Shown here piece after piece: positions 1 through 46,470 of a stretch of 64,000 nucleotides of DNA. The stretch is from contig JAJDCG010000001.1 of the NCBI GenBank assembly GCA_029260965.1, forward strand, positions 312,012 to 376,011. Reading direction: 5' to 3'. Source of the DNA: Candidatus Levyibacteriota bacterium (GTDB lineage: Bacteria > Patescibacteriota > Microgenomatia > Levybacterales > UBA12049). The notes beneath the pieces were generated by a model. The model was not told where the DNA came from. It saw only the letters and a list, made by a program, of their open reading frames with translations, and did not search any database. The translations under genes were made by a program, and so were the position numbers. The first letter of the stretch is position 1. Every line of letters starts with the position of its first letter.

Positions 1-99
1 GATGTATTGTTGTTTCTTTGCCTGCACTTTGCGCAAGAGTCTTTGCTGGGTCTAATGAGTCGTAGTCAACGCCTGATTCCTGATAGCTTATTTTTTTAT

Positions 100-1071
100 T
101 CATATCGTGATTTTATTTATGTTTTCTATTATACGTTTTTCAATAGGATAATCAAACTCCTCAAAAGTATTCCCAGTTATTTTTTCATAAACTTCAACAT
201 AACGCTGTGCTGTTTGGATTATCAAATCCTCCGACATTTCAGGAGGAGGCCCATCTCCCTGATACCCTTTGTCAGCATACCAAAGACGTAAGAACTCTTT
301 ATCAAAATTCTCTGGCTCCTGGCCTTTGATTATTCTCTCTTTGTATGTATCAGCAATCCAGAATCGTGATGAGTCAGGAGTATAGATTTCATCAATCAAC
401 ATCAATTTTCCATCAAATAATCCAAATTCATATTTTGTATCAACCAAAATAATTCCGTGCTCAGCACACCACCTGCTGCCAAATTCAAACAAATCGAGGG
501 AAACTTTTTCCATTTGTTCATAGAGTTTTTTATTGACAATTTTTTGATTGATAATCTCTTCTCGTGTTAATCTCTCATCATGAACATCGGATCCTGCAGC
601 TGGATGAGTGGTGGGTGTGATGATTGGCTGTTTTAGTCTTTGATTTTTTTTCATACCATCAGGAAATCTAATTCCATAGATATTTCGTTCTCCGTTTTGA
701 TAGGAATACCATACAGATGTTTTGGTAACTCCTGATAGATAGCCTCTTACAACCATCTCAACGGGAATAGGCTTACAATTTCTGGAAATAAGAACATTTG
801 GGTCGGGGACTGAGAGCATATGGTTATCAACTATATTTTTTGTCTTTTCAAACCAAAATGCTGCTAGCTGATTAAGAACTGCGCCCTTGAAGGGAATGTT
901 TCCCAAAATTACATCAAAAGCTGACTGTCTATCTGTTGTTACGGTTATTCTCGTATTATTTTTAATATAAAAATCACGCACCTTGCCCGAGTATTTTTTT
1001 CCAAGATTTGGAAGATCGATAGATTCTAAAGCACGAGGAATTGTATTTAATATTGTTTTTTCATCAATCAT
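100..1071 (-). CDS. purC: Phosphoribosylaminoimidazole-succinocarboxamide (SAICAR) synthase, long (~320 aa) form
   Basis: 323-aa ORF with the SAICAR-synthetase fold (long eukaryote/yeast-like form rather than the ~237-aa bacterial form). Last gene of the overlap-coupled pur operon; 4-nt overlap with purE. Confidence 0.8.
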
Positions 1072-1601
1072 TTATTTTTATCAAGATAATCTTTAACACC
1101 TAGTCTATCAAGCATATCTACCTTTTCCATTACCATATCTTCAAGATCTATTTGATATTTTTCCAATTTTTTCTGAATTTCTTTATTAGTAGCGCCGATT
1201 ATTCGGGCTGCCAGGAGTCCTGCGTTTTTAGCGCCATTTATCGCAACTGTTGCAACAGGTATGCCTGATGGCATCTGGACAATTGATAGAAGTGAGTCAA
1301 GTCCATCAAGGGACTTTGTTTTGACAGGGACACCGATAACTGGAAGAGTTGTGTGAGAGGCAACCATACCTGGAAGATGAGCTGATCCACCAGCTCCAGC
1401 AATTATTACCTGTAAGCCTTTGCCTGATGCTGTTTTGGCATACTCATTCATTCTGTCTGGTGTTCTGTGAGCTGAGACAATTGTTGTTTCGTTTGGTATA
1501 CCAATCTCGTCAAGAATTTTTCCTGCCTCACTCATCACAGGGAGATCACTATCCGAGCCCATTATTATGCCAATGATTGGTTGATTGTTTGAATTCTCCA
1601 T
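1068..1601 (-). CDS. purE: N5-carboxyaminoimidazole ribonucleotide mutase (class I PurE)
   Basis: PurE motifs GSDSDLPVM and [16 protein letters not shown]. Start moved to the internal ATG (MENSNN.., 1599-1601), leaving a 2-nt gap after the purK stop instead of a 46-nt overlap. Confidence 0.85.
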
Positions 1602-1603
1602 TG

Positions 1604-2743
1604 CTATACTGTTATAAGTGACCTTGCTTTTTCTGCCTTTGCTTTGCATTCATCAAGCGAATTTCCAACAACTGTGATGTGTCCCATTTTGCGTTCAATT
1701 CTTGTCTCCAGTTTACCATAAATATGGACAAAAACGCCAGGAATTTTTTCGGCTTTTTTAATTCCTTGAGGCTTTGCTTTTCCTTTTCTTTCTCCAAGTA
1801 TGTTTATCATTACCGAGGCTGGCACAATCATTTTGGTCTCTCCAAGATCCATTCCCGAAATAGCTCTGAGGTGTTGTTCAAATTGAGATGTTTTATTTGC
1901 TTCAATTGTATGGTGGCCTGAGTTGTGAACGCGTGGCGCAATTTCATTTATAAGGATTTCGTTAGCAGCAGTTAGAAACATTTCTACCCCAAATACTCCA
2001 GCTCCATCAAGTAGTTTTATTGCATCTTCTGCTATTTGTTTTGCTTTCGCCTTAGTTTTTTTATCAATGGACGCAGGAGAAAAAAGATAATTAAGAATGT
2101 TATTTTCATGAATTGTCTCAACAACAGGATATGAGTTAATTATACCAGAAGTATTTCTAGCCACCATAATAGCTAATTCTTTCTTAAACGGTACAAACTT
2201 TTCTACATATAAATTTTTGCCATGAAGTTTTCCTAGCGCGTCATCAATTTGATTTTCTGTTTTGATTAATGCATTTCCTCTCCCATCATACGCGCCAGTT
2301 CTAGCCTTTAGCAGTACAGGATATCCAAATTTTTTAATTGCCATTTTTATATCAGATTTTGTTTTTACTTCCAAAAAATCAGGAATCGGTAGATTATTTT
2401 TTTGGAGGAATTCGTTTTGTTTGAGCTTGTCTTGAATAATAGCTAGTGTTTTGGGAGATGGATGAACTGGTTTACCACCGTCCTTGATTTCTTGAAGAAT
2501 GTTTTGGAGTCCTTTCTCATTTGTTACTTCAACTTCAATTGTCAAAACATCTGTTTTGTCAGCAAGTTCCTGAATTGCTTTTTTGTTAGTAAGCTCAGCT
2601 ACTATTTGTTCATCTGCTATTTGTCCTGCAGGGGAATTGGGATCGGGGTCTAGTACTATTAGTGAGAATCCAAGCTTGTGCGCAGGGTCAACCATCATTC
2701 TGGCCAACTGCCCTCCACCAATTATTCCTACTCTAGTTGTCAT
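1604..2743 (-). CDS. purK: N5-CAIR synthetase (ATP-grasp)
   Basis: N-terminal [13 protein letters not shown] and an ATP-grasp body typical of PurK. Start chosen at [11 protein letters not shown] (ATG 2741-2743), which has an AGGAAA SD-like element; the ORF-track start at 2761 has none. Confidence 0.8.
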
Positions 2744-4136
2744 TTGTATTTCCTGATTCATCTATTTCTTTTATAGCTTTTTCTGTTAACTCAACAGCAA
2801 GTCCGATATAGTTTTCGGGAGTCAATTTTTTAAATTTTGTTTTTATATTTTCATCAACTGATAATCCATCAACCCACTTGCTCCAATCTTCAGGATTTAC
2901 GTTTTTTCCTCTTGTAAGAGTCGAGATAAGTGAATAAGGATCATTAACATTTTCTTTCCTTAAAAAGGTTTGAACAGCCTCTCCCAGTATCGACCAGTCT
3001 TTATTAAGCGCCCTTATTATCTCCTCAATGTTTGGTTCAATTCTTGAAAGACCAGCTAGGGTACTTTTGTATCCGATCAAAGAATTGCCAAGAAATGTTC
3101 CGATTTCCCTAAGAGTTGTGCTGTCAGATAAGTCCCTTTGCAGTCTTGAGATGGGTAGTTTGCGGACAAAAAAATCACCCAAAGAATTTGCTATTCCAAG
3201 ACGTCCTTCACTATTTTCAAAATCAATTGGATTTACCTTTTGGGGCATGGTTGACGATCCCACCTCGCCTTTTACAGTAGATTGCACAAACCAATGATCA
3301 CTGATATATCGCCACATATCCTGGTCCAGATCAATTATGATTCCATTTATTCTTTGATAGACTTGGATCATCTCGATTATATCCTCAGGTGGATTGATTT
3401 GAGTTGTAACAAGATTTGGTGTAAGCTCGAGAGATTTTATAAATTTTTCAGAAAATTCAATCCAGTCAATATTAGGATAGGTGTAGAATAAAGCATTAAA
3501 ATTTCCAACAGCTCCATTTAGTTTTCCTGTTAGCTTTAGTGATTTGAGTTTAATTGCCTCGTTGTTTAAGCGAGTTGCAAATACCGCAAATTCTTTGCCG
3601 ACAGTGGTTGGGACCGCTGCTTGTCCATGAGTTCTAGCAAGCATGGGTATAGCTTTGTATTTTTCAGCTCTTTTTACCATTTCACCGACAAGCTTATTGA
3701 GTTTTGGAAGTATTACCTTGTTGGTTGCATCAACTAGCTGCATTCTGTATGAGAGATTATTAATGTCTTCTGATGTGAGACCAAAATGAATCATTTCAAG
3801 TTGATCTTTGAGAGTTGTAGATTCAAGTTTTTTTCTCAATATTCGCTCAACTGCCTTGACATCATGACGAGTTTCTTTTTCAATATCTTTTACTTTTTCA
3901 ATATCTTCATCAGTTATTATTTCACTGCTTAAGTCCTGCAATAATTTTTCTTCTTTTTCTGTAAATTTGCGGGCAATACCTGCAATTGATAAAGCAAGAA
4001 GATATTTGGCTTCAATTTTGATGCGGTTTTTTATAAGTCCGTATTCTGATGTGATGGTTGAGAGTTCATCTACTTTTTGATTATATCTTCCATCAATTGC
4101 AGATATTGATTTTAGGGTTGATTTTTGATCTTTCAT
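2733..4136 (-). CDS. purB: Adenylosuccinate lyase
   Basis: 467-aa ORF of PurB length, with the fumarate-lyase family signature region (GSSTMPQKVNP-like) and the N-terminal IDGRYNQ motif. Confidence 0.85.
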   Translation of the reverse strand: MKDQKSTLKSISAIDGRYNQKVDELSTITSEYGLIKNRIKIEAKYLLALSIAGIARKFTEKEEKLLQDLSSEIITDEDIEKVKDIEKETRHDVKAVERILRKKLESTTLKDQLEMIHFGLTSEDINNLSYRMQLVDATNKVILPKLNKLVGEMVKRAEKYKAIPMLARTHGQAAVPTTVGKEFAVFATRLNNEAIKLKSLKLTGKLNGAVGNFNALFYTYPNIDWIEFSEKFIKSLELTPNLVTTQINPPEDIIEMIQVYQRINGIIIDLDQDMWRYISDHWFVQSTVKGEVGSSTMPQKVNPIDFENSEGRLGIANSLGDFFVRKLPISRLQRDLSDSTTLREIGTFLGNSLIGYKSTLAGLSRIEPNIEEIIRALNKDWSILGEAVQTFLRKENVNDPYSLISTLTRGKNVNPEDWSKWVDGLSVDENIKTKFKKLTPENYIGLAVELTEKAIKEIDESGNTNDN

Positions 4137-4137
4137 A

Positions 4138-5232
4138 CTAACTAATTATATCACTTAGCTTGTTTTGTTCTTGTGCTTTTTTTATTTCCATAGCAATTCT
4201 ACGCCCAACATTTACAGGTTTTCCAAAGAGATAGCCACTGTACGGCGTTGCTGTAATTCCTGGTGATCCGGGGAAACGGGGAGAGACATCTATAACAACT
4301 ATGTCTTTTTTTGGTGGACCTGGTACTATAAATGATTGAAGCGCAAACGGTCCGACAATACCAGGATTTGTTAGTTCTTTGCAGGCTTTTACAAATCTCT
4401 CACCAATTTCAAATGCTGGCTCAAGCATTGATTCAAGAACTGTTACTGCGGTATGACTTGCTTCTTCATAAGAGATTGTGATTTTTTTTAAAACTTCTTC
4501 TTGATAATTAGCTGGCAGTTTGGTTATTCCATGAAAATTTGTTTGGCGTCTGGTATCGGTTCCAAGAAGCTCAAGTCTGTCTGATATGGGTGAATAGAAA
4601 AAGTTGAAGTTAACTTGTACTCCTACGATGAATTCTTCGATCACTGCTTTTTTGATCTGTTCTTCTGTAAAAAGACCGATATACATCTTCTGTTCTATTT
4701 GCTTGAGATAATCTTCATAGCTATCAACTATAAAAAATGCTCTTTCAAATTCTCTGTCTTTCTCGAGAATCTTTACAAGACATACTCTGTCTATTTTTTT
4801 AGGGTCTTTGAATTGTTTGGGGTAGCGGATTTTGGCAACATCAAGAAGGTCGTACTGGTTTGGCTTGAAACCTCTTTCCTCAATTCTTAAAAGTTTTTTA
4901 TTTCCAAACATAGGGACTTCAAATTTATTTTCAATTGCATCATAGTCATTGATATATACCTCAAAAGATCTATTTGGGATAAAAATTGCGTTTGCGGCTT
5001 TCAATTTTTCCTGGATATCAGGATTTAGCACTTCTGAAAATTTATTTACCAAAATTACTTCATCAACACATCCGGTTTCACCCTTTGATTTATAGTACTT
5101 TGCATATGTTTTTTCTCTACCTTTCTGACAAATAATTAAATTTTTAAATCCCTCATCTTTGGCGCCGCGAGCTACTTCGAGTGCCGAATGGCTGCCAATT
5201 GCTGCAATTGTTATTGGTTTATTGCTGTTCAT
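4138..5232 (-). CDS. purP: Archaeal-type formate-dependent FAICAR synthetase (PurP family; DUF1246/DUF1297 ATP-grasp), paralog A
   Basis: N-terminal IAAIGSHSALEVARGAKDEGF and the FFYSP / GPFALQ ATP-grasp motifs resemble archaeal PurP as I recall it. 364 aa. Confidence 0.65.
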   Translation of the reverse strand: MNSNKPITIAAIGSHSALEVARGAKDEGFKNLIICQKGREKTYAKYYKSKGETGCVDEVILVNKFSEVLNPDIQEKLKAANAIFIPNRSFEVYINDYDAIENKFEVPMFGNKKLLRIEERGFKPNQYDLLDVAKIRYPKQFKDPKKIDRVCLVKILEKDREFERAFFIVDSYEDYLKQIEQKMYIGLFTEEQIKKAVIEEFIVGVQVNFNFFYSPISDRLELLGTDTRRQTNFHGITKLPANYQEEVLKKITISYEEASHTAVTVLESMLEPAFEIGERFVKACKELTNPGIVGPFALQSFIVPGPPKKDIVVIDVSPRFPGSPGITATPYSGYLFGKPVNVGRRIAMEIKKAQEQNKLSDIIS

Positions 5233-5233
5233 G

Positions 5234-6727
5234 TTAGTGCTTAAAGCTTCTGATTCCCGTAAATATCATAGCGACATCTGCTTCATTGCAGGCGTCAATT
5301 GTTTCTTGATCTCTGATAGAGCCTCCAGGTTGAATGATTGCTTTAATCCCTGCTTTTATTAATGTGTCTGGTCCGTCTCTGAAAGGAAAAAATCCATCTG
5401 TTGCTGCGACTGCTCCCTCAAGAGGCGTGAGTGCCTTACTGACACATAGCTCGCAACATCTTTTTCTGTCTTGTTGACCAACTCCTGATGCAATCAAAAC
5501 ACCATCTTTTACAGCAACAACACAATTTGATTTACTGACTTGAGATATTTTCCAAGCAAACATCAAGTCATCAATTTGTTTGCTGGTTGGTTTTTTCTTT
5601 GTCACTGTTTTTAGGTTATTTACCTCAAGCCTCATGATATCAGCATCCTGGATCAGATATCCTCCTCTGACTCTCTTTTGATCATCATACGGGACAAGAA
5701 AGGGTTTTTCAAGGTCTTTATTTTCAAGAAGTTGGAGTTTTGGTCTACTACTGAGCTCAGCTAAGGCTTCTTTTGTAAATCCTGGTGCTGCCACTATTTC
5801 AAAAAACTTTTTGTCTGCAAGCATCTGTTTTGCTAGTTTTTCATCTACAACTCTGTTGAATAAGATTACTCCTCCGAATGCCGCCAGGGGATCTCCCTCA
5901 AACCATGCTTTATGAAAAGCATCATGAATATTGTCGGCAATTGCAACGCCACATGGATTGGTGTGTTTTAAAATAACACAGGCAGGTGTTGCGCCGTTGA
6001 TTAGTGAAATTGTCATAAGTCCTGAATCAAGATCTAGATAATTATTAAATGATGTTTCCTTTCCTTGAATAACCTTGAAGTTGTTAAGTCCGAGTTTGTC
6101 TTTTCCATTATCAGAAAAGAAAAAGGCTTTTTGATGAGGGTTTTCTCCATATCTTAATTCTTTTCCGTTTTTTAAAATTTGATATTTATTTTTTGATCCG
6201 AAGAAGTTTGAGATTGAGATATCATATTCTGTAACATATGAAAATGCTTTTGCTGCTAATTTTTTTCTTTCCTCAAGTGTTGTTTGTCCTTTTGTCAGTA
6301 GTTTATAATCGTCAGGATCAACCAAGACAGATACGCTTTCATAGTTTTTGGCTGCAGCCCTTGCCATTGTTGGTCCGCCAATATCAATCATTTCAATACC
6401 AGGTTTTTCGCTGAAGGCGTAAAAATTACAGATTACGAAATCTATATGAGGGATTTTTAATTCTTCTGCTTCTTTCTGATGAGTTTTATTGCTTCTGTCA
6501 AAGAGAATTCCTGAGAGCGCCTGAAAGCTAATTGTCTTTACCCGACCACCAAAACTTTCAGGGTTTTTGGTAATTTCTTCAATTGGTGTAATCTTGATTT
6601 TATTTTTCTTGAGAAGTTCAGCTGTGCCGCCGGTTGCAATTATTTCTATATTATTTTTTATGAGGTTTTTTGCCAGATCTACAATTCCGGTTTTGTCATA
6701 AACACTAATTAGGGCGTATTTCTTCAT
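5234..6727 (-). CDS. purH: Bifunctional AICAR transformylase / IMP cyclohydrolase
   Basis: N-terminal MGS-like IMPCH domain (ALISVYDKTGIV..ATGGTA) and C-terminal AICARFT domain with the KHTNPCGVA motif. Full length at 497 aa. Confidence 0.9.
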   Translation of the reverse strand: MKKYALISVYDKTGIVDLAKNLIKNNIEIIATGGTAELLKKNKIKITPIEEITKNPESFGGRVKTISFQALSGILFDRSNKTHQKEAEELKIPHIDFVICNFYAFSEKPGIEMIDIGGPTMARAAAKNYESVSVLVDPDDYKLLTKGQTTLEERKKLAAKAFSYVTEYDISISNFFGSKNKYQILKNGKELRYGENPHQKAFFFSDNGKDKLGLNNFKVIQGKETSFNNYLDLDSGLMTISLINGATPACVILKHTNPCGVAIADNIHDAFHKAWFEGDPLAAFGGVILFNRVVDEKLAKQMLADKKFFEIVAAPGFTKEALAELSSRPKLQLLENKDLEKPFLVPYDDQKRVRGGYLIQDADIMRLEVNNLKTVTKKKPTSKQIDDLMFAWKISQVSKSNCVVAVKDGVLIASGVGQQDRKRCCELCVSKALTPLEGAVAATDGFFPFRDGPDTLIKAGIKAIIQPGGSIRDQETIDACNEADVAMIFTGIRSFKH

Positions 6728-6729
6728 AA

Positions 6730-7746
6730 TTATCCAAGGATTAGGGGCAGCTTGTTTTTTTCAATTGCAATTTTTATCTCCCTTGCGATCCTCCTTCCTG
6801 TGCTCATTGGTTCGTTATAGTAGAGCCATGAATATGGAGAGCCGTTGGTAAAGATGTTTGTGCCAGCGACAATCCTGCAGGAAATTTCAAGAACGTAAAA
6901 TTTGGCATCAGGGGTGATTATGGTTTCAAGACAAAAAGGTCCAAAAATTCCTTTTTTATCTATTAATTTTCTGGATGCTTCAATTGTTTTTCTGCCCATA
7001 TCATATGCTTCAGGCAGCATACTCTCACGTAACACAAGATCACTGTTTCCAACAACAACATAACTTGGTTCAATGTCTAGCCCTTCCTGTCCAAGAAGTG
7101 GAATTCTTCCTATCCCATCAGCATTTGTTTCATATCTTCTGTCCATGCTCATAATCTCCAATTTGTCAGTAAGAGGAGAGTAGAAATAATGTATGTAAAG
7201 AGGTACACCAATCACGTATTCTTGAATTATGAATTTTTTATTACCAAAAGCAATGATTTTTTTTTCAAAATCAGTTTTGTTTTTTGCGTAAAAATATCCT
7301 TTTCCACCAGCTGCACCATAAGATTTCACAATAATTGGATAAGTGACCGGTTCGTGTTCGAAATCATACTGTTTAGGAACATTAATTCCTGCTTTGCTGA
7401 GCCACTCTCTTTGTTGTCTCCTGTCTTCTTCCCAGTCAAGAACACTCTTATTGCCATAATATGGCAATTTCATGTTTTTGTTCTTTTCTGTTCCAAGATG
7501 AGCTACAAATGAACCATGAGGTATGATAATGACGTTTTTTTCTTTTAGTTTATCCTCGATTGAGGGAAAGTCTGAAAATGAAGCAAGAGTTATGAATTCA
7601 TCAATAAAGGGAAATGATTTGTAGAATTCCTCTCGTTCTTTTGTGGTGATTATGAGAGTTTTAAAGCCTTCGTCTTTGGCGCCTTTTAATATCTGAAGCG
7701 ATGAATGACTTCCTAGTGTCGCAATTGTGTGTTTATTATTTTTCAT
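6730..7746 (-). CDS. purP: Archaeal-type FAICAR synthetase (PurP family), paralog B
   Basis: IATLGSHSSLQILKGAKDEGF, IIPHGSF, HYFYSP, GPFCLE and LSTGRRIAREIK motifs closely follow PurP. 338 aa. Confidence 0.7.
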   Translation of the reverse strand: MKNNKHTIATLGSHSSLQILKGAKDEGFKTLIITTKEREEFYKSFPFIDEFITLASFSDFPSIEDKLKEKNVIIIPHGSFVAHLGTEKNKNMKLPYYGNKSVLDWEEDRRQQREWLSKAGINVPKQYDFEHEPVTYPIIVKSYGAAGGKGYFYAKNKTDFEKKIIAFGNKKFIIQEYVIGVPLYIHYFYSPLTDKLEIMSMDRRYETNADGIGRIPLLGQEGLDIEPSYVVVGNSDLVLRESMLPEAYDMGRKTIEASRKLIDKKGIFGPFCLETIITPDAKFYVLEISCRIVAGTNIFTNGSPYSWLYYNEPMSTGRRIAREIKIAIEKNKLPLILG

Positions 7747-7749
7747 AGT

Positions 7750-8553
7750 TTATTTATTAAAATATTGTACAGCATTTTTGAATATAGATAAACCCGGTCC
7801 TTCAGATGATGTTTTTTTGCCTGTTCTTTTGTGCTCTTCTTTTTTAATTTGCCAGTTGGGGAGTTGGGTAAAAAACATGCCCCGTTCAGGGTGTGGCATG
7901 AGACCCAGTATTTTTCCTGATCCATCAATGATGCCTGCTATATCAAGCGCTGATCCGTTGGGATTGTAGGGAAGATCAAGATATTTACTCATTTCGCCAG
8001 CCTCATATTTTAGTGCAATTTGTTTGTTCGTTTCAAGTTTTTTGAGATCATTTGCTTTTGCAAAAAACTTTCCTTCTCCATGCGCAATTGGCAAAGATAG
8101 TTTTTCTATTCCATCAAGCCAGGGAGTTTTGGTGGTTACTTTTAGATCAGTCCAGCGACATATGAATCTCGCGCTTTCATTATTTAAAAGCGCCAAATCT
8201 CTTTGACCATAGTTATTTTCAAATGCTGGAAAAAGTCCAGTATTGGCAATAATTTGACAACCATTACAAATTCCGATTACTAATTTATCTTTTTCTATAA
8301 ATTTCAATAACTTTTCCCAGAGATGATTTTTAATCTTGTTTGCGTATGCGATACCAGCTCCTGTATCATCGCCATATGAAAATCCTCCGGGAAAAGAAAG
8401 AATCTGGTAGTCATCGAGTTTGTAAAGTCCATCAATTATGTCATTGATGTGGATTATCTCTGATTCAGCACCAGCCAGTGTAAAGCCATATGCTGTTTCT
8501 GCTTCCGAGTTTAGTCCGTATCCTGAGAAAATTAGCACTCTTGGTTTTTTCAT
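7750..8553 (-). CDS. purQ: FGAM synthase glutaminase subunit
   Basis: Class-I glutamine amidotransferase: GICNGCQ nucleophile elbow and HPER near the C-terminus, which are PurQ hallmarks. Confidence 0.85.
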   Translation of the reverse strand: MKKPRVLIFSGYGLNSEAETAYGFTLAGAESEIIHINDIIDGLYKLDDYQILSFPGGFSYGDDTGAGIAYANKIKNHLWEKLLKFIEKDKLVIGICNGCQIIANTGLFPAFENNYGQRDLALLNNESARFICRWTDLKVTTKTPWLDGIEKLSLPIAHGEGKFFAKANDLKKLETNKQIALKYEAGEMSKYLDLPYNPNGSALDIAGIIDGSGKILGLMPHPERGMFFTQLPNWQIKKEEHKRTGKKTSSEGPGLSIFKNAVQYFNK

Positions 8554-8555
8554 AT

Positions 8556-11522
8556 TTAATAATCTTTAAAAGTTTTTTTATATTGATTTTTTGCGTTATT
8601 AAGCTTTATGTTTACTATTTTCTTTCCCGATAAGCCTTTTATTATTATTTCAGGTTTTTTTGTAACTGTTCCAATTTGTTTTATTTTATTTCCACTCATT
8701 GTCTTTTCAAATGCTTTTTTATTTTTGGGTGCGATTGATATTAGAATTCTGCCTTGGCTTTCTGAAAAAAGAGCCAGATCATTTCTTGTGATGCTACCTG
8801 GAAGATTTTCAAGTGACACATCAACACCCAGCATCCCACCAATTGATTTTTTGGCAATAGCAACAGCCAGACCGCCTTTGCCTATGCTGATACTTGATGC
8901 GATCAGTTCTTTTTGAATTGCTTTGTAGAAATCTTTGTACATTTTAAAATTCTTTTTTGTATTTACAATTGGTGTTTTCGTACTGCTGACATTCTTCATA
9001 GATAAATACTCGGATCCTCCCAGCTCATCAAAAGTTTCACCTAGGATATAAATCAAATCATTTTCCTTTTTTGCATCAAGAGAAACTGTTTTGTTTATAT
9101 CCTCAATAACACCAATTGATGAGATCAGAAGGGTTGGGGGAATTGTGACTTTTACTGGTTTGCTGTTTTTGTCAAAACCGTTGAATTCATTAAACATGCT
9201 GTCTTTTCCTGAAATGTAGGGAGTTTGATAATCAACTGCAGTGTCATAGCATGCTTTGGCTGCCATTTTTAGTTGAAAAAGCCTTTGGGGGGTATTGCTT
9301 TCTGTCCAGCAAAAATTATCAAGCAAAGCGATATAGTCAGGATTGCCACCTATTGCAACTGCATTGCGAACTGCTGTATCTATACTTGCTGCAGCCATAG
9401 CATAAGGATTTATGTCAGAGTAGTTTGGATAAAGAGCTTGAGACATCACAACGCCTCTTTGAGACTGAAGAACTGGACGGAAAACAGACGCTTCTGAGTT
9501 TACTCGACCTGATCCCTGGAGTGGCCCGAGGACTGCACCTCCGAGCACTATGTGATCGTACTGGCTAGAGATGAATTCAATGCTGGTTATGTTTAATCTT
9601 GCAAGCATCTGAGAAACAGACATGTTTAGATTCACATCTGTTGGTATTGTTGCCTGGTGCTTGTTGTTTGTTGTTTTGTCAGAAATCATCTTGCGTTGGG
9701 GTAATCCGTCGTGGAGAAATTTCATATCAATATCGAGAATTGTTTTGTTTTTGTATTTTACAATTCCTTTTTTTGAGTTGGTAAATTTACCAATTATCGT
9801 TGCTTCAACGCCTCGTCTTTTCATAAGGGAGTTAAATTTAACCCAGTTTTTTTCTGGAACAGCAAGGGTCATTCTTTCTTGAGATTCTGATATCCAGATT
9901 TCCCAAGGGTCCAGGCCCTGGTATTTGAGTGGGGTTTTTTCAAGATCGAGTACAAATCCTCCTGACTCTTTTGCCATTTCTGAAACAGAGCAAGACAGTC
10001 CTCCTGCTCCATTATCAGTTATGCTGCTGTAGAGAAGTTGATCTCTTGCTTCATTTATAATTGCGTCGCTTAATTTTTTTTGTGTGATAGGATCACCGAT
10101 CTGGACTGCTGCTGCTGGGCTTTTAGTGTTTAGGCTTTCTGAAGAAAAGGTTGCTCCGTGCACACCGTCTTTTCCGACTCTTCCACCGATCATGACTATC
10201 AGGTCACCAGGTTGAGCATTTTTGATGTGTGAGGGTTTATTTTTTATTTTTTTGGGAATAAGACCTATTGTTCCCGCAAAGACAAGCGGTTTTCCTCTGT
10301 AGCCCTCATGGAAATAAACAAATCCCTGAGGTGTTGGGATTCCTGATTGATTACCACCTGCATTTATTCCAGCAATAACCCCATCCATAATTCTGCGGGA
10401 TGAGAGCATTTTTTGAGATTTATTTTTATTTCTATATAAAGGTATGTCTATTGCAGGATCTGCAAGGCAGAATCCATAAAAATTTGCAACCGGTTTGGCT
10501 CCAAGTCCAAATCCCAGTGTGTCGCGATTGACACCTACTATTCCAGTTATTGCTCCGCCAAATGGATCAAGAGCTGATGGGCTGTTGTGTGTTTCGACTT
10601 TATGAGTGATTAAATAATTTTCATCAAACGAAATGCCACCTGAATTGTCAGTGAATACTGATACGCAAAAATCTTTCTTTCCTTTAATTTTCCTTATTTT
10701 TTCAGTTGCGCCCTTGATGTAGGTTTTATATAGCCCATTTTTAATATTGTCGATTGGATCATTAAAAATAGTGTGCTTACAATGCTCAGACCATGTTTGG
10801 GCAAGTGATTCCAGCTCTATATCAGTTGGGCTTCTTCCAAGTTTTTTAAAATATTTTTGAATGGTTTTCATGAATGAAAGATCAAGTGCTAGGGGGCCAC
10901 GAGTTGTTCCGTCCTGGTTTTGGATTCCATTTTTTCCTATTTTTGCTAGCTCTTCATCGCTGATATTTAGATTTATCTCAATGACTTTTGGTTGATGCTT
11001 TATATCTACTTTTGGAACGAATAAATCCATTCCGCCGTCTTTTAGGAATTGCTGATAGCTCTTGATGTGGGCTCTCTGGATAAGAGGATTGTAAAGAGTT
11101 AGCGATATTTCTTTTGCGTCTTTTTCAGACACTTTGCCTGTCAAAAAGGTTACTTGAGACGAGTAGACATCTTCACCGTTCCTAAATTTTGTTTTTAGAC
11201 TATCTTCAATTATTTCTTTTGCAGTATGTCCGATGTTGTCTGTAACTCCAGGTAAAAATCCAATCTCAATTGCAAAGGTGAATTTTTTAGGAGGTGTAAA
11301 TCTAGCTTTTTCTGTTTGAAAGACAACTGATTGGGTTAGGGGATTTGATAGTTTTTTCCCGATTGATATCAGTTGTTTATCATCTAGTTTTTTTGCAACA
11401 GTATAAATGTCATAGATCCAAAGATCTTTTATTTTTTTAAATCCCTGATTTTTCAGTTTATCGATACGATTTTTGGCTCTGGTATCAAAAACATTTGTAA
11501 TTATTCCAATTCTTGCTGTCAT
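8556..11522 (-). CDS. purL: FGAM synthase synthetase subunit with a fused large-PurL-type (PurS-like) N-terminal domain
   Basis: 988 aa. Residues ~200-250 (GRSPTDIELESLAQTWSEHCKHTIF) match the linker/start of the FGAM-synthetase domain in single-chain large PurL (cf. E. coli ..[25 protein letters not shown]). The ~200 aa before it correspond to the PurS-like N-domain. There is no glutaminase domain (PurQ is separate). Confidence 0.85.
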   Translation of the reverse strand: MTARIGIITNVFDTRAKNRIDKLKNQGFKKIKDLWIYDIYTVAKKLDDKQLISIGKKLSNPLTQSVVFQTEKARFTPPKKFTFAIEIGFLPGVTDNIGHTAKEIIEDSLKTKFRNGEDVYSSQVTFLTGKVSEKDAKEISLTLYNPLIQRAHIKSYQQFLKDGGMDLFVPKVDIKHQPKVIEINLNISDEELAKIGKNGIQNQDGTTRGPLALDLSFMKTIQKYFKKLGRSPTDIELESLAQTWSEHCKHTIFNDPIDNIKNGLYKTYIKGATEKIRKIKGKKDFCVSVFTDNSGGISFDENYLITHKVETHNSPSALDPFGGAITGIVGVNRDTLGFGLGAKPVANFYGFCLADPAIDIPLYRNKNKSQKMLSSRRIMDGVIAGINAGGNQSGIPTPQGFVYFHEGYRGKPLVFAGTIGLIPKKIKNKPSHIKNAQPGDLIVMIGGRVGKDGVHGATFSSESLNTKSPAAAVQIGDPITQKKLSDAIINEARDQLLYSSITDNGAGGLSCSVSEMAKESGGFVLDLEKTPLKYQGLDPWEIWISESQERMTLAVPEKNWVKFNSLMKRRGVEATIIGKFTNSKKGIVKYKNKTILDIDMKFLHDGLPQRKMISDKTTNNKHQATIPTDVNLNMSVSQMLARLNITSIEFISSQYDHIVLGGAVLGPLQGSGRVNSEASVFRPVLQSQRGVVMSQALYPNYSDINPYAMAAASIDTAVRNAVAIGGNPDYIALLDNFCWTESNTPQRLFQLKMAAKACYDTAVDYQTPYISGKDSMFNEFNGFDKNSKPVKVTIPPTLLISSIGVIEDINKTVSLDAKKENDLIYILGETFDELGGSEYLSMKNVSSTKTPIVNTKKNFKMYKDFYKAIQKELIASSISIGKGGLAVAIAKKSIGGMLGVDVSLENLPGSITRNDLALFSESQGRILISIAPKNKKAFEKTMSGNKIKQIGTVTKKPEIIIKGLSGKKIVNIKLNNAKNQYKKTFKDY

Positions 11523-12793
11523 AATCTGCCTATATCTGATCTGTATTGCATTCCCTCAAAATGTATTCCGTTTGGGCCAATTGTACTGTAAGCCTTTTTT
11601 AGGGCCTCATTTAGAGTTTCACCTGTTGCTGTTATGCCCAGGACCCGACCGCCGTTTGTGACAAAATTGTTTCCATTTTTTTTGGTAGCAAAGTGAAAGG
11701 TAGTAATTTCGGGATCATGGGCAAATTTCTCCAATCCGTTGATTGCAATCCCTTTTTGCGAACTGACGGGATAACCATTTGATGCAAGGACAATGCAACA
11801 AGCGATTTTTTTTGACCATTTTATATTTATTTCCGAAAGTTTTTTTTCTACGCAAGCGTTTAATATTTCAAAAATATCTGTCTCAAGAAGTCTCATGTAG
11901 GACTCCATTTCTGGATCACCAAAGCGTGAATTAAATTCAATTACTTTCGGTCCGTCTTTTGTCATCATCAATCCTGGATAAAGGCATCCTGTAAAGGGAA
12001 TTCCCATTTTTTTCATTCCCTGAATTGCTGGAGTCACAATTTTTTCTTTTATTTCATTAATTTCTTTTTCTGATATTTCAGAAAGTGGCGCGATAGTTCC
12101 CATGCCACCGGTATTGGGACCTCTATTGCCATCGTGAATTGGTTTGTGATCTCTTGCTGTTGGGAAAAGTGAAATTGTTTTTCCGTCAGAGAATGCATGG
12201 ATTGAAACTTCCTTACCCTCCAGATATTCCTCGATTACTATTTCCGCTCCAGCATCACCAAAAACTTTTTTGATCATCGCATCATTAATTGCGCTGATTG
12301 CTTCATTGATTGTTTTTGCAACAACAACGCCTTTGCCCAATGCGAGGCCTGATGCTTTTATGACAATGGGTGCTCCATGTTTTCTTGTATAATCTTTCGC
12401 TTTTTCAGCATCAGTAAACGTTTTGTATCTTGCTGTTGGTATATTATTTTCCCTCATCAGGTTTTTTGCAAACGCTTTTGATGACTCAATTTGCGCAGCT
12501 TCTTTTGTGGGACCAAAAATTTTGAGTTCATGTTTCTCAAAGGTGTTTACTATGCCAGATGCTAAGACATCATCAGGTCCGGCAATAGTTAGGTCAATCG
12601 AGTTTTCTTTTACGAATTTGATGAGGGATTCAAAATCAAATGGGTTGATGTCTGTGTTTTTTCCGACCAGCTCAGTGCCTGCTGTTCCTGGGGCAAAATA
12701 AATATTGTTAACCTTTGGTGATTGTTTTAATTTCCAGCCCAATGCATGTTCTCGTCCTCCTGATCCAATAATTAATATGTTGTTTTTTACCAT
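11519..12793 (-). CDS. purD: Phosphoribosylamine-glycine ligase (GAR synthetase)
   Basis: N-terminal ILIIGSGGREHALGWKL; ATP-grasp; 424 aa. Confidence 0.9.
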   Translation of the reverse strand: MVKNNILIIGSGGREHALGWKLKQSPKVNNIYFAPGTAGTELVGKNTDINPFDFESLIKFVKENSIDLTIAGPDDVLASGIVNTFEKHELKIFGPTKEAAQIESSKAFAKNLMRENNIPTARYKTFTDAEKAKDYTRKHGAPIVIKASGLALGKGVVVAKTINEAISAINDAMIKKVFGDAGAEIVIEEYLEGKEVSIHAFSDGKTISLFPTARDHKPIHDGNRGPNTGGMGTIAPLSEISEKEINEIKEKIVTPAIQGMKKMGIPFTGCLYPGLMMTKDGPKVIEFNSRFGDPEMESYMRLLETDIFEILNACVEKKLSEINIKWSKKIACCIVLASNGYPVSSQKGIAINGLEKFAHDPEITTFHFATKKNGNNFVTNGGRVLGITATGETLNEALKKAYSTIGPNGIHFEGMQYRSDIGRL

Positions 12794-14916
12794 ACAAAAT
12801 CTCCTTTACTGATATCGATATTTTGGCTAATAACGTGAAGTACTCTTTTTATAGCTGTTGGTAAAACCTGGTATTCTGTTTCATGTATTTTTTTCTCCCA
12901 TGTTTCAAATGAATCGTTTTTGTGTCTGGCAACCTCTGATTTTAATATAATCGGGCCTATATCAAAATTTTCGCTTGGAATCACTTGATGAACAGTGACA
13001 CCTGATACTGGAAGATTTTGATCATACGCTTCTCTTATTGCGTGAGCGCCTCTGATTACGGGAATTTTTCCTTTGGATGTGCGGATTGTTTCTTTGAATT
13101 CTTTTGTCATTAGTGAAGGGTGGAGATTTATTACTGGTATTTCAAGGTTCTGCATTTCTTTGAGGAATTTATATCCTAGTACCAACATCCAGCCTGACAA
13201 TATAATGAGGTCAGGGTTTGTATTTTTAACCTCAGCAGTCAATTTTTCTTCATAGTTTTCACGTGTTTTTTTATCTGAAAGTTTACCCTGGTATGGAATT
13301 ATTGATATCGGAATATTATGTTTTTTGGCTCTAATTGTAGCGTATGCATCTTCCTTATTGGAGAGGACAGATATAATTTTTGCGTTTATATCGTTAGACT
13401 CAATACGATCTATTATTTTTTGTAAATTTGTTCCTGATCCTGAAACAAAGATAGAGATTTTGGGCTTGCTATTTATTTTTTTATGCATTTTTTTAAATAC
13501 AAATTGTTCGTCTCTTACAGGATGTGGGCCACCGAAAATGTAGTGATAAAAATCTTCTTTTTTACCACCCATTGCAAGTGCTGTTTCTTCAATGGGTAGG
13601 TATATTACTTCATCTGCTTTGACTTTTTTTGCCATTTCTTTTTCTATAATTTCAATTGGTTCATTTTCAAATGCGGATGCAGCCAATTCTTGTTTAGTTC
13701 TCATATCAATTCCTAAATCGCATTGATTCACAACAGGAGGGGATGCAAAAGCCATATATATTTTTTCAGCACCAGCATCTCTGATGTCTCTTGCTAGTAT
13801 TGTGCTTGTTGTTAGTCTGACTGCAGAGTCGTCAACAACTATCACTTTTTTTCCTCTGATCTCATCAGCAACAACATTATGCTTACCACTTACTGCTGCA
13901 ATTCGGTTCTCTTGACCAGGTCTTATAAAGGTGCGTCCGACATAGTGACTTGTGGTAATAGCATCAACAATAGGAATATCAAGTTCTTTGGCAACTCCTT
14001 TGGCAGCAGGATACCCAGAGTCGAAAATGGGGATAACAATATCTGCCTTGATTCCCTTGTTTCTTATCCGTGTTCCTAGGAACTTTCCTGATTTTTCTCG
14101 TCCTGCTTTTACTCTTTTACCGTTTGCAAAACTGTCAGGGCGTGAGAAGTAAATTCCCTCAAAGATGCACGGCTGTGGTTTTTTAACAGTCCCGAAAAAC
14201 TGAGAATTGATAGTGCCTTCATCGTCAATGCGTATTATTTCCCCGGGTATGATGTCGCGTAGGTATTCTGCTTTTAGAATATCTAAAGCAACCGATTCAG
14301 ATGCCATAACCCATCCGTCATGAAGTTTTCCAAGGCAGAATGGTCTGATACCGTATGGGTCTCTAATGCCGAATAGTTCATTGTCATTAGTGACAATAAC
14401 TAGGTTGTATGCGCCGTTGAAAAGGGGCATACATTTTTTTATAGTATCTATCCAAGTTTTATATTTTGGTCTTTCCTGGATCAAAAATTCTGCAACAATG
14501 TTCGTATCGCTATCTTGTTGTTTTTTATTTTTTAAAAGTTTTATTACATTTGAAACATCAGGAATATTTCCGTTGTGGCCTATTGATATCTCAAATTTTC
14601 CATTTTTCAGGTGAATTGGCTGAGCATTGTTTAAAGAAGATTGTCCAAAAGTACCGTATCTGTTTTGACCTATCGCAAACTTACTTTTGCCGAATTTTTT
14701 TACAACCTTGTCATTGAGAACGTGTGGTATGAGTCCCATGTTTTTGTAGGTTAAAATTTTATTTTTTGCTCCAATAACACTCATACCAGCACTTTCTAAT
14801 CCACGGTGTTGGAGTGTGGCGAGACCTGATCTCGCATAGTATGCTGCATTGCTATCAGCGGTGTAGATACCGATGACTCCACATTTTTCATGAATATCTA
14901 ATTTGCTGTTTCTCAT
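12787..14916 (-). CDS. purF: Fusion protein: amidophosphoribosyltransferase (PurF) + phosphoribosylglycinamide formyltransferase (PurN)
   Basis: Residues 1-~470 carry an 11-aa propeptide then Cys (MRNSKLDIHEKC-GVIG), the Ntn glutaminase domain and a PRTase domain (VIVVDDSAVRLTTS). Residues ~480-709 carry a PurN domain (SGSGTNLQ, NLHPSL, SGVTVHQV..DIGPII). Confidence 0.8.
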   Translation of the reverse strand: MRNSKLDIHEKCGVIGIYTADSNAAYYARSGLATLQHRGLESAGMSVIGAKNKILTYKNMGLIPHVLNDKVVKKFGKSKFAIGQNRYGTFGQSSLNNAQPIHLKNGKFEISIGHNGNIPDVSNVIKLLKNKKQQDSDTNIVAEFLIQERPKYKTWIDTIKKCMPLFNGAYNLVIVTNDNELFGIRDPYGIRPFCLGKLHDGWVMASESVALDILKAEYLRDIIPGEIIRIDDEGTINSQFFGTVKKPQPCIFEGIYFSRPDSFANGKRVKAGREKSGKFLGTRIRNKGIKADIVIPIFDSGYPAAKGVAKELDIPIVDAITTSHYVGRTFIRPGQENRIAAVSGKHNVVADEIRGKKVIVVDDSAVRLTTSTILARDIRDAGAEKIYMAFASPPVVNQCDLGIDMRTKQELAASAFENEPIEIIEKEMAKKVKADEVIYLPIEETALAMGGKKEDFYHYIFGGPHPVRDEQFVFKKMHKKINSKPKISIFVSGSGTNLQKIIDRIESNDINAKIISVLSNKEDAYATIRAKKHNIPISIIPYQGKLSDKKTRENYEEKLTAEVKNTNPDLIILSGWMLVLGYKFLKEMQNLEIPVINLHPSLMTKEFKETIRTSKGKIPVIRGAHAIREAYDQNLPVSGVTVHQVIPSENFDIGPIILKSEVARHKNDSFETWEKKIHETEYQVLPTAIKRVLHVISQNIDISKGDFVW

Positions 14917-14959
14917 AAGTATGAATTATAAAAAAATAATTCTAAAGTTTTCTGATTTT

Positions 14960-14988
14960 GGGACGAAAAACCCCGCGTCGTAGCGGGG
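14960..14988 (-). terminator. Leader hairpin (CCCCGC-loop-GCGGGG) followed by T5 on the minus strand, inside the purF 5' UTR
   Basis: Forward 14971-14988 ccccgcgtcgtagcgggg. The minus-strand reading is hairpin then TTTTTCG (forward A-run 14966-14970). It lies between the putative promoter and the purF start codon. Confidence 0.4.
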
Positions 14989-15056
14989 CTGCAAAAATTT
15001 AATGATATCTATTTTTAATAATCTTGAAATTATGGACCATGTAGTTTCCATACATG

Positions 15057-15085
15057 ATTATAATTCATTTGAGTTTTGGTGTCAA
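15057..15085 (-). promoter_or_regulatory. Near-consensus sigma70 promoter for the pur operon (TTGACA-17 nt-TATAAT)
   Basis: Minus strand: TTGACA (forward tgtcaa 15080-15085), a 17-nt spacer, TATAAT (forward attata 15057-15062). About 135 nt upstream of the purF ATG. Confidence 0.45.
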
Positions 15086-15465
15086 TTATCTTTCAAAATT
15101 GCTATCATTATAATGACGTGAAGAAAATAGTTATTAGAAATATATTTGTCATATCTATAATTTTTCTTATTGTTTTTTTAGTTTCAGCAAATGAAGAGTA
15201 TATCAGAAGGAAAGCTATTTCTCTTCTGGGAGATGGTACTTCTCAGGTAAGGGGTGCTAGCACAGAGAAGGGGGAAGAGGTATCAGGAAAGATCAGCTCA
15301 GATATTGGCGACCAAATGAGCTTAATAAAAGATGATTTGCTTGACATAAGAATAGGGGACATTATGGATGGTTTGTCTCGTGCTAGAAAAATTTCTCATG
15401 ACCTTAGTCAAGTAAGTATTTATATTCGAGATAAAGTTGATGGTGTGTTACAATCTGATAAATAA
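15076..15465 (+). CDS. Hypothetical small membrane-anchored protein (N-terminal TM; alternative GTG start at 15115)
   Basis: The ORF starts with TTG in the track and there is no ATG. It has a hydrophobic N-terminus (IVIRNIFVISIIFLIVFLV) then a charged soluble part. It ends 3 nt before prfB. Confidence 0.35.
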   Translation: MVSIIFQNCYHYNDVKKIVIRNIFVISIIFLIVFLVSANEEYIRRKAISLLGDGTSQVRGASTEKGEEVSGKISSDIGDQMSLIKDDLLDIRIGDIMDGLSRARKISHDLSQVSIYIRDKVDGVLQSDK

Positions 15466-15468
15466 TTT

Positions 15469-16470
15469 ATGGATGATTTAAAAACTAGACTTAAAAAAAT
15501 ACTAGAAAGAATAGATCCTGATTCTCAAAAAGCAAAAATAAGAGAACTAACAGCAGAAAGTATGAAGCCGGATTTTTGGCAGGATCACCAGAAAGCTGCA
15601 AAAAAGATGAAAGAGCTGTCTGATTTACAAAATGAGGTAGACGAGGCGGAGAAGTTGTTTGTTTTTGTTGAGGAAGGAAATGAAAAAGAAGCAGAAAAGC
15701 TGTTAAAAAAAATGGAGACTATATTATTCTTTTCAGGGGAGCACGATAGTGCAAATGCAATAGTTGGAATCCACTCAGGGCAGGGTGGGACAGAGGCAAT
15801 GGATTGGGCTGAGATGCTTTTTCGTATGTATACGAGATATTTTGAGAAAAAGGGCTGGAGCTATGAAATACTTGATCAGACAACAGGTGAAGAAGCTGGA
15901 ATAAAAAGCATAACAATTGCAATTAGTGGGAAATATGCTTATGGTTATCTCAAGCATGAGGCAGGCGCGCATCGATTGGTGCGTCAGTCACCGTTTAATG
16001 CTGATAAATTGCGTCAAACATCATTTGCATTAGTTGAGGTAATGCCTGAAGTTGAGGATGCAAAAATTGAGCTCAGAGATGATGATATCGAATTCGAAGC
16101 TTTTAGATCTGGTGGTCATGGGGGTCAAAATGTAAATAAGGTTTCGACCGCAGTGCGCTTGAAGCACAAGCCAACCGGAATTGCAGTTGCGGCATCGGTT
16201 GAAAGATCGCAAATTCAGAATAGGGAATTTGCCATGAAGTTGCTTCGCGCAAAATTGTGGGCAATTGAGGAAGAAAAGCAAAAGAAAAAGGAGGCTGAGC
16301 TAAAAGGTGGATACAAAACCCCAGGTTGGGGAAATCAGATCCGCTCATACGTATTGCATCCATACAAAATGGTTAAGGACCTCAGGACTCAAGTTGAAAC
16401 AGGAAACACCGACGCAGTGCTTGATGGGGATTTGGATATGTTTATTGAAGAAGAACTGAGGAGTTTATAA
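15469..16470 (+). CDS. prfB: Peptide chain release factor 2
   Basis: The SPF tripeptide (RF2-specific) and the GGQ motif are present, with overall RF2 collinearity. There is no programmed +1 frameshift site. Confidence 0.9.
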
Positions 16471-44051: not shown

Positions 44052-44052
44052 T

Positions 44053-45066: not shown

Positions 45067-45070
45067 CTTC

Positions 45071-45607: not shown

Positions 45608-45610
45608 TCT

Positions 45611-46468: not shown

Positions 46469-46470
46469 TA

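Follow-up and report, generated by a model that had tools for sequence, protein, structure and literature searches.

A purine operon of the bacterial Microgenomates group encoding a paired set of archaeal-type PurP proteins beside a complete PurH

The window analysed here is a 64,000-nucleotide stretch of a Candidatus Levyibacteriota contig (JAJDCG010000001.1, positions 312,012 to 376,011), and it contains a single, tightly packed purine biosynthesis (pur) operon of a Levybacteria (Patescibacteria, Microgenomates) genome in which step 9 of the pathway, the conversion of 5-aminoimidazole-4-carboxamide ribonucleotide (AICAR) to its formylated product (FAICAR), is encoded twice, by the bifunctional enzyme PurH and by two paralogous proteins of the PurP family, here called PurP-A and PurP-B, whose genes flank purH. 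In the list of open reading frames (ORFs) of the window, the operon consists of 11 co-directional ORFs on the minus strand, separated by 1-3 nucleotides or overlapping slightly, with spacers of 1-3 nucleotides within the PurP-B, PurH and PurP-A trio. In the direction of transcription, the features are as follows.

15057..15085, minus strand: candidate operon promoter, a perfect sigma-70 consensus (TTGACA, 17 nucleotides, TATAAT) about 140 nucleotides upstream of the purF-purN start codon
12787..14916, minus strand: purF-purN fusion of 709 amino acids, amidophosphoribosyltransferase (step 1) and folate-dependent glycinamide ribonucleotide (GAR) transformylase (step 3), from TIGR01134 and TIGR00639
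11519..12793, minus strand: purD, GAR synthetase (step 2), from similarity and operon position; conserved as purD in related loci
8556..11522, minus strand: purL, 988 amino acids with an N-terminal extension, subunit of formylglycinamidine ribonucleotide (FGAM) synthase (step 4), from AIRS, AIRS_C and FGAR-AT linker domains
7750..8553, minus strand: purQ, glutaminase subunit of FGAM synthase (step 4), adjoining purL in all related loci; the homologue in locus L082 (see below) carries GATase_5
6730..7746, minus strand: PurP-B, 338 amino acids, cluster Ib (PurP II) type, presumed catalytic formate-dependent AICAR formyl ligase (step 9), from DUF1246 and DUF1297
5234..6727, minus strand: purH, 497 amino acids, bifunctional, with N-terminal inosine monophosphate (IMP) cyclohydrolase (step 10) and C-terminal folate-dependent AICAR transformylase (step 9), from NF002049 and catalytic residues
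4138..5232, minus strand: PurP-A, 364 amino acids, cluster II (PurP III) type with a remodelled active site, presumed obligate partner of PurP-B, from DUF1246, DUF1297 and cluster II columns
2733..4136, minus strand: purB, adenylosuccinate lyase (step 8), an ORF kept downstream of PurP-A in related loci
1604..2761, minus strand: purK, N5-carboxyaminoimidazole ribonucleotide (N5-CAIR) synthetase (step 6a), from ATP-grasp PF02222 at 2e-62 and PurK_C at 3.8e-20
1068..1649, minus strand: purE, N5-CAIR mutase (step 6b), from TIGR01162 at 221 bits (cut-off 149.6)
100..1071, minus strand: purC, succinylaminoimidazole carboxamide ribonucleotide synthetase (step 7), the last ORF of the operon and also the last pur gene in related loci

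Both proteins were assigned to the PurP family by domain content and by alignment with solved structures. DUF1246 and DUF1297 were found in order and covering the whole protein in PurP-A (E values 1.7e-42 and 1.4e-58; 144.7 and 198 bits) and in PurP-B (2e-45 and 5.7e-69; 154.2 and 231.9 bits), the Pfam gathering cut-offs being 25 bits for DUF1246 and 23.8 bits for DUF1297. End-to-end alignments were obtained between PurP-A and the Methanocaldococcus jannaschii structure 2r7k (E 4e-68) and between PurP-B and Pyrococcus furiosus PF1517 (E 3.7e-105). At the fold level, covered for PurP-A, an AlphaFold2 model (predicted local distance difference test score, pLDDT, 85.2; predicted template modelling score, pTM, 0.86) placed PurP structures first in Foldseek, with E values of 2e-35 to 3e-22 and template modelling scores of about 0.8, with the next fold at 2e-10; generic ATP-grasp enzymes, among them biotin carboxylase, PylC and PurK, came in only at about 1e-10. 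The N-terminal motifs IAAIGSHSAL and IATLGSHSSL were both found in the PurP ORFs, and the formyl contacts His27 and Arg314 and the AICAR 5'-phosphate contacts Ser94 and Ser266 are present in both proteins, which share 35% identity. The first-pass annotation had proposed two clearly diverged PurP paralogs at this locus, and both parts of that proposal held, a generic ATP-grasp identity of the PurT or PurK kind having failed on domains, structural alignment and fold search.

Three main groups of PurP have been described in archaea, namely cluster Ia (PurP I, MJ0136), cluster Ib (PurP II, PF1517) and cluster II (PurP III, PF0421) (Brown et al. 2011, PMC3261824; Cruz et al. 2019, PMC6486802). Two features mark cluster II, namely that His replaces Asn258 and that the 161-165 loop has two extra residues and none of the glycines of (K/R)GG(K/R)G (PMC3261824), and clusters Ib and II co-occur in every archaeon having either (PMC3261824, PMC6486802). 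The window proteins were aligned with MJ0136, PF1517 and 68 full-length representatives of 50%-identity clusters, using M. jannaschii numbering (His27, Ser94, RGGRG161-165, Asn258, Ser266 and Arg314 matching the published positions) and residue roles from Brown et al. 2011. Conserved columns (at least 90%) were defined from references outside the Candidate Phyla Radiation (CPR) only. PurP-B matched 55 of 58 conserved cluster I columns and PurP-A only 34 of the same 58, while for cluster II PurP-A matched 34 of the 35 conserved columns and showed every one of the 11 specific states (G50, R93, R124, E163, N208, Q230, E255, H258, Q297, D310 and G317), of which column 258 is circular, since it was used to split the groups. 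PurP-B has the loop GAAGGKGYF (GxGGxG), Asn258 and LEISCRIVAGTN. The corresponding loop of PurP-A, LEKDREFERAFF (EKDREFERAFF), is two residues longer, lacks Gly-Gly and carries Glu-Arg; its His260 aligns with position 258 (His for Asn), and it has IDVSPRFPGSPG where cluster I has FEISARIVAGTN (D-V-S-P-R-x-P-G-S-P versus E-I-S-A-R-I-V-A-G-T-N). These three features, the loop, residue 258 and the G-T-N segment, co-vary almost without exception across all aligned representatives. Given these motif and conserved-column matches, the window pair represents the bacterial counterparts of archaeal clusters Ib and II rather than a lineage-specific or local duplication, so that the duplicate state, which had been flagged as unusual, is the canonical archaeal arrangement of two types that always occur together (PMC3261824, PMC6486802).

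Aligning the catalytic residues of the two paralogs, a check proposed with the initial reading, gave a full set for PurP-B and an altered one for PurP-A. PurP-B has His27, Ser94, the Gly-rich loop, Asn258, Ser266, Glu297, Glu310 and Arg314 and, as read from the alignment, lacks none of the residues that an active formate-dependent ligase should have. In PurP-A the contacts to AICAR/FAICAR (His27, Ser94, Ser266 and Arg314) are retained, as are Arg228, Glu265, the ATP-grasp Lys156 and the hinge Glu199-Glu200, but its ATP-phosphate and metal elements are changed, with the Gly-rich loop becoming x-F-E-R-A-F-F, Glu310 becoming Asp and V-A-G-T-N becoming P-G-S-P-G, and with the gain of conserved Arg93, Arg124 and Arg164. 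The remodelled elements are invariant across cluster II, which argues for a ligand site in PurP-A that is different and probably working, rather than decayed. In the PurP-A model, confidence was lowest in the remodelled loops (70-75 at residues 151-170 and below 50 at residues 324-329), as is usual for lids that become ordered upon ligand binding. The earlier suggestion of a different or non-catalytic role for one of the paralogs agrees with the remodelled site of PurP-A, although this is a standing question for the whole of cluster II and is not specific to this locus.

To place the locus among its relatives, one genome per GTDB species was scanned, giving 80 loci with close PurP-A relatives (56-93% identity) from Levy-, Davies-, Roizman-, Curtiss-, Woese- and Gottesmanbacteria, the genomes coming from independent studies. 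Both PurP genes were present in 75 of the 75 Microgenomates loci having sequence upstream of PurP-A. Mean identity to the window proteins across these 75 species was 65.6% for PurP-A and 64.1% for PurP-B, and the PurP-A family of the Microgenomates has over 100 invariant columns. From these near-equal means and the invariance of the family-specific residues, PurP-A and PurP-B are under equal constraint and PurP-A is not decaying. The two genes are adjacent in most lineages, and the spacing from PurP-B to PurP-A is often -8 to +4 nucleotides, which suggests translational coupling. Where the pair is parted, the gap is occupied by purA in Curtissbacteria, Gottesmanbacteria and one further locus (L068), and guaA precedes PurP-B in Daviesbacteria. 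In some Levybacteria a histidine-phosphatase gene (phosphoglycerate-mutase-like, with an RHG motif) lies between purH and PurP-A, as at 9351-10001 of locus L002. Across the 80 loci, purH was placed as follows.

purH between PurP-B and PurP-A: 8 loci, Levybacteria
purH directly downstream of PurP-A: 31 loci, Daviesbacteria type
purH elsewhere in the locus: 3 loci, mixed
purH undetected in the locus DNA fetched: 38 loci of 80, Roizman-, Curtiss-, Gottesman-, Woesebacteria and others

A homologue search with PurH gave Levybacteria-type relatives only, among those listed. Two of the loci, L039 (Roizmanbacteria-type) and L072 (Gottesmanbacteria), hold purF, purN, purD, purL, purQ, PurP-B, PurP-A, purB, purE, purC and purM, and thus cover every step of the pathway except those of purK (N5-CAIR synthetase, step 6a) and IMP cyclohydrolase.

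Outside the Microgenomates, adjacent cluster Ib and cluster II genes were found in an archaeal contig (L081) and in a contig (L084) on which purF, purD, a PurT-like gene, purE and purM were present as well; because the pair is adjacent in these outgroups, the bracketing of purH appears to be derived and specific to Levybacteria. In a neighbour-joining tree (no bootstrap), the Microgenomates PurP-B proteins formed one clade beside PF1517-like proteins and the PurP-A proteins one clade within cluster II, consistent with joint inheritance of the pair. In a library of 50%-identity clusters, the nearest relatives of PurP-A outside the Microgenomates were 46-52% identical. For both proteins the nearest outside relatives lie in L082, a contig of JGI metagenome 3300050265, whose cluster Ib protein is 60% identical to PurP-B and whose cluster II protein is 46% identical to PurP-A. 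By the names of its homologues, L082 belongs to the Vulcanimicrobiaceae (phylum Vulcanimicrobiota/Eremiobacterota), and a second bacterial phylum therefore has the Ib and II pair inside a pur operon. Its PurP genes (5332-8004) are split by a 383-amino-acid Ala-rich ORF with a signal-peptide-like start, and a 154-amino-acid ORF precedes them. The longer ORF had no match in Pfam, NCBIfam or the PDB, and given its composition and start it is probably an unrelated or spurious ORF call; the shorter had no Pfam match and no significant NCBIfam match. Many TPA records titled 'uncultured Gammaproteobacteria bacterium', and single records with Limnocylindrales or Lysobacterales titles, also carry the Microgenomates pur operon at 60-86% identity, and these titles are probably placeholders or mis-binned contigs.

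The bacterial origin of the window, which had been assumed from the start, is supported by genes for SecA, MurJ, a bacterial class-I release factor, LepA, GroEL and seryl-tRNA synthetase, and by a closest genome, a Candidatus Levyibacteriota metagenome-assembled genome, that has 93% identity and an identical gene order. GC content is uniform along the window at about 0.36-0.40, and the PurP genes, at 0.36 with a third-position GC (GC3) of 0.27-0.31, equal their neighbours. The bacterial markers, the uniform composition and this closest genome together place the host among CPR bacteria of the Microgenomates group and rule out both an assembly artefact and a recent import. An archaeal fragment mis-assembled or mis-binned into a bacterial contig might be suspected, as PurP has been called an archaeal signature gene (PMC3261824, PMC6486802). 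That explanation is refuted, and essentially no weight is given to it, as the PurP genes sit inside the continuous operon, share the composition of adjoining genes, and recur within the same operon in the 80 species-level genomes; uniform GC and GC3 and the same breadth of conservation rule out recent horizontal transfer as well.

The PurH between the two PurP proteins is complete, as the first-pass annotation had it. It matched NCBIfam NF002049 at 553 bits (cut-off 402) over positions 5-510 of 510, and TIGR00355 at 470.9 bits, below the cut-off of 528. The cyclohydrolase residues are present as Lys (VKT), Tyr (NFYAF), Asp (IDIGGP) and Lys (AAAKN), and so are the transformylase Lys-His (ILKHTNPCG) and RYGENPHQ; in human numbering the catalytic residues are Lys66, Tyr104, Asp125 and Lys137 for the cyclohydrolase and Lys267 and His268 for the transformylase (PMC3261824). 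Loss of the transformylase was sought in Levybacteria- and Daviesbacteria-type PurH and was not found, Lys-His being kept in both, and at the residue level there is no sign of a reduction to cyclohydrolase. The idea that PurH mainly supplies the cyclohydrolase step is neither supported nor refuted, with ILKHTNPCG and RYGENPHQ intact. All examined Microgenomates PurH proteins (L001-L068 and the window) read GR(V/M)KTISF..(L/A/E)SG(I/L)L at PurH residues ~60-80, in the cyclohydrolase domain (KTISF..LSG in the window), where canonical PurH reads GRVKTLHP..HGGIL. Between Levybacteria and Daviesbacteria PurH, the cyclohydrolase halves are 55-60% identical and the transformylase halves 31-36%.

Step 3, the other formylation of the pathway, is encoded by the PurN domain fused to PurF, in whose translation the Asn-x-His (INLHPSL) and Asp (FDIGPII) motifs were read, and no PurT was seen in the window. 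About 2 kb from the operon, a CofE-like gene and an adjoining gene for an energy-coupling factor (ECF) transporter S component lie at 16907-17662 and 17669-18397 on the minus strand. The best NCBIfam match of the CofE-like protein was TIGR04132, 'putative folate metabolism gamma-glutamate ligase', at 265 bits, below the cut-off of 350, and the transporter component matched PF12822 at 28 bits, below the cut-off of 30.7. Taken at face value, the two annotations suggest folate salvage and polyglutamylation. With such genes nearby, the PurP route may, for step 9 alone, reduce the need for a scavenged cofactor or serve as its back-up. Of the folate-independent bypass originally envisaged, at most step 9 stands, as step 3 falls to a folate-dependent PurN domain.

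The reading preferred here, held tentatively and at somewhat less than an even chance, is that the two PurP proteins jointly serve, beside PurH, as an AICAR formyl ligase dependent on formate and ATP, with PurP-B catalytic and PurP-A its obligate partner. PurP-B would activate formate with ATP through a formyl-phosphate intermediate and then transfer the formyl group to AICAR. PurP-A, keeping the AICAR/FAICAR and adenine-nucleotide pockets with its phosphate and metal loops remodelled, would work with PurP-B and not as an independent second copy, most likely in a mixed oligomer of B and A trimers, as has been speculated for archaeal PurP II and III. By the second route the C-terminal transformylase of PurH would use 10-formyl-tetrahydrofolate, and its N-terminal domain would close the ring to IMP whichever route had made the FAICAR. 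The sequences show the family and sub-cluster of both PurP proteins, the active-site residues they contain, the conserved linkage of the pair among Microgenomates and its operon setting; the enzyme activities, the physical association of A with B and the route that carries the flux are what we infer. Joint action is favoured because the two genes strictly co-occur and appear coupled, because they are under equal constraint, and because of what is reported for the P. furiosus proteins: PF1517 and PF0421 are each inactive alone, PF1517 binds ATP and AICAR (PMC3261824, PMC6486802), and its weak trimer-trimer interface led Cruz et al. to propose hetero-hexamers of types II and III (PMC6486802).

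Several points weigh against joint action. Neither protein reached the NCBIfam equivalogs NF009778-NF009783 for formate--AICAR ligase (EC 6.3.4.23), the best scores being 286 against 556 bits for PurP-A and 391.5 against 580 bits for PurP-B. We know of no cluster Ib or cluster II protein with demonstrated activity, nor of structure or interaction data for cluster II. On account of the missed equivalog cut-offs and the lack of a proven activity in either sub-cluster, the two are filed here as PurP-family proteins of clusters Ib and II rather than as demonstrated FAICAR synthetases; their relatives are annotated by NCBI as 'DUF1297 domain-containing protein' or 'ligase family protein' and by JGI as 'FAICAR synthetase'. 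A PurP route also looks redundant given an apparently intact PurH, and the pathway as a whole still needs 10-formyl-tetrahydrofolate, since step 3 belongs to PurN. Finally, strict co-occurrence and adjacency fit two consecutive enzymes equally well as two subunits.

The main rival reading is a different division of labour, in which PurP-A catalyses or promotes the ring closure of FAICAR to IMP and the pair is a two-enzyme AICAR-to-IMP module. His258, which replaces the Asn contacting the AICAR carboxamide, could be the general base that lets the amide nitrogen attack the formyl carbon, and PurP-A keeps the nucleotide-monophosphate contacts (Ser94, Ser266, Arg314 and His27) despite changes in its metal ligands and in the loop for the ATP phosphates. 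Brown et al. raised the idea and observed that purO and purH2 tend to be missing from archaea that have two purP genes (PMC3261824), but the archaeal pattern is imperfect, as Archaeoglobus has purJ and Methanosarcinales have purH beside the pair (PMC3261824, PMC6486802). Among the Microgenomates, the otherwise near-complete clusters of L039 and L072 lack an IMP cyclohydrolase as well as purK, and the 38 loci without a purH-like sequence point the same way, although purH, purJ or purO may lie outside the DNA fetched from those genomes. Levybacteria and Daviesbacteria, moreover, keep a full PurH beside the pair, the cyclohydrolase of the window PurH would on this reading be redundant with PurP-A, and PurP-A retains Lys156 and Glu199-Glu200 for binding adenine, a function superfluous in a cyclohydrolase. 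Ring closure by PurP-A is accordingly judged unlikely. Its general form, in which the cluster II paralog is the 'missing' IMP cyclohydrolase or an essential second-step subunit where PurH2 and PurO are lacking, and clusters Ib and II make up a self-sufficient, folate-independent AICAR-to-IMP module, is equally doubtful; if it were true, the purH-less Microgenomates such as L039 and L072 would correspond, among bacteria, to Crenarchaeota and Pyrococcus, and the Levybacteria, with purH inserted between the PurP genes, a later hybrid state.

It is similarly improbable, in our estimation, that the two proteins are independent enzymes, PurP-B being a stand-alone formate-dependent FAICAR synthetase that backs up PurH at folate scarcity, much as PurT does for PurN in Escherichia coli, and PurP-A a separate ATP-grasp ligase for a related substrate or another acyl or phosphoryl donor. 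PurP-B does have every residue of the active M. jannaschii-type site, the putative folate gamma-glutamate ligase and ECF component near the operon suggest dependence on imported folate, and the three gained arginines and lost Gly-rich loop of PurP-A fit an altered anionic ligand; Zhang et al., as cited in PMC6486802, suggested that PurP II takes its formyl group from another source and that the activity of PurP III is distinct or absent. However, PF1517, the closest solved relative of PurP-B (52% identity), has no FAICAR synthetase activity alone (PMC3261824), the logic of a back-up is incomplete while step 3 still needs folate and no PurT is seen in the window, and independence leaves unexplained why the types are never apart in archaea or in the 75 loci. 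That PurP-A is a catalytically dead pseudoenzyme with a structural or regulatory role, or that the whole pair is a non-functional relic given PurH, is less probable still. The loss of the Gly-rich ATP loop, the change of the metal ligand Glu310 to Asp, the replacement of the Thr-Asn of G-T-N and the absence of any reported activity for the cluster II protein PF0421 (PMC3261824) would suit a dead enzyme, but the remodelled site is strictly conserved (Glu163-Arg164, His258 and Asp310), and this speaks for a ligand site that works. Conservation excludes a relic, with 56-93% identity over six candidate phyla and invariant cluster II-specific residues, and a purely structural role already falls within the joint action preferred here, from which it is inseparable by sequence alone.

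Compared with known systems, PurP-B is closest to cluster Ib PF1517 (PDB 2r84-2r87), with which it shares 52% identity over its full length, the Gly-rich loop, Asn258, Glu297, Glu310, G-T-N and the pairing with a cluster II gene seen in archaea; it differs in its bacterial host and in its place within a bacterial-style pur operon with purK, purE, purN and purH, with the caveat that the reference protein is itself inactive alone (PMC3261824). PurP-A resembles PF0421 in His258, the longer glycine-less loop, all other cluster II-specific residues and the accompanying cluster Ib gene, a partnership found in the window, in 75 of 75 Microgenomates loci and in L081, L082 and L084; its host, unlike that of PF0421, is bacterial, and in the window purH stands between it and its partner. 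FAICAR synthetase activity has been demonstrated for one PurP only, M. jannaschii MJ0136 (cluster Ia), which has the same fold and the same AICAR and formate contacts (46% identity to PurP-B and 39% to PurP-A), but is a single gene product that works with PurO in an organism without PurH, whereas the window has two paralogs and PurH. The combination of purP II, purP III and full purH has been tabulated for ten archaeal genomes (PMC6486802, Table 1). This Methanosarcinales-type set has the same three genes and two possible routes through step 9; its hosts, however, are archaea holding both folates and archaeal folate analogues (PMC3261824), and in the window the trio is contiguous in one bacterial operon.

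A functional analogy is offered by step 3 in Escherichia coli, where a folate-dependent transformylase, PurN, and a formate- and ATP-dependent ATP-grasp ligase, PurT, serve one formylation; the difference is that another pathway step and another ATP-grasp family are involved, and that PurT is a single protein. What is new here is the bacterial host, the proteins, sub-clusters and gene trio being already known, and there is no new enzyme family or mechanism. A survey of 1,403 genomes found purP only in Archaea and in no bacterium (PMC6486802), which a bacterial PurP contradicts, and literature searches found no published reports of PurP in CPR, Microgenomates or Eremiobacterota. The range of the Ib and II pair is accordingly revised to include, complete, the Microgenomates (CPR) and also the Vulcanimicrobiota, within ordinary bacterial pur operons, and with it the view of the enzyme's occurrence and evolution, in which the pair travels as a unit. 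Hundreds of independent genomes are added to the puzzle of the role of cluster II PurP and of ring closure without PurH or PurO, and because PurH accompanies the pair in only part of these genomes, phyletic-pattern tests and expression in bacterial hosts become possible. The finding also bears on purine synthesis in small-genome, probably folate-scavenging bacteria.

For the remainder of the operon, the promoter candidate at 15057-15085 is the sole 12/12 sigma-70 match in positions 1-15600; the total of promoter-like sites there was not above shuffled expectation, so that the call rests on its position and perfection only. An Rfam scan of the whole window gave no match at gathering thresholds, purine and ZTP riboswitches included, and no tRNAs were found in the window. 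The purF part of the fusion scored 333 bits against TIGR01134, just below the cut-off of 350, and the PurN part 153.5 bits against TIGR00639 (cut-off 150.1), with ~35 residues inserted between its NLHPSL and FDIGPII motifs; the fusion is seen in Levybacteria, and in other Microgenomates the two genes are adjacent, with separate matches. PurL scored 519.7 bits against TIGR01736, slightly under the cut-off of 525.75, and its first ~200 residues lie upstream of the match to the PurL subunit model and may be a fused PurS-like or N-terminal domain. The window lacks a detectable purM, which adjoins the operon in L039 and L072. Further along, at 43311-52768 on the plus strand, a long nucleotide-sugar cluster encodes a nucleotidyltransferase, several GDP-mannose/dTDP-glucose dehydratase-like epimerases, RmlD, UDP-glucose dehydrogenase and glycosyltransferases with a GtrA domain, pointing to cell-envelope glycan synthesis.

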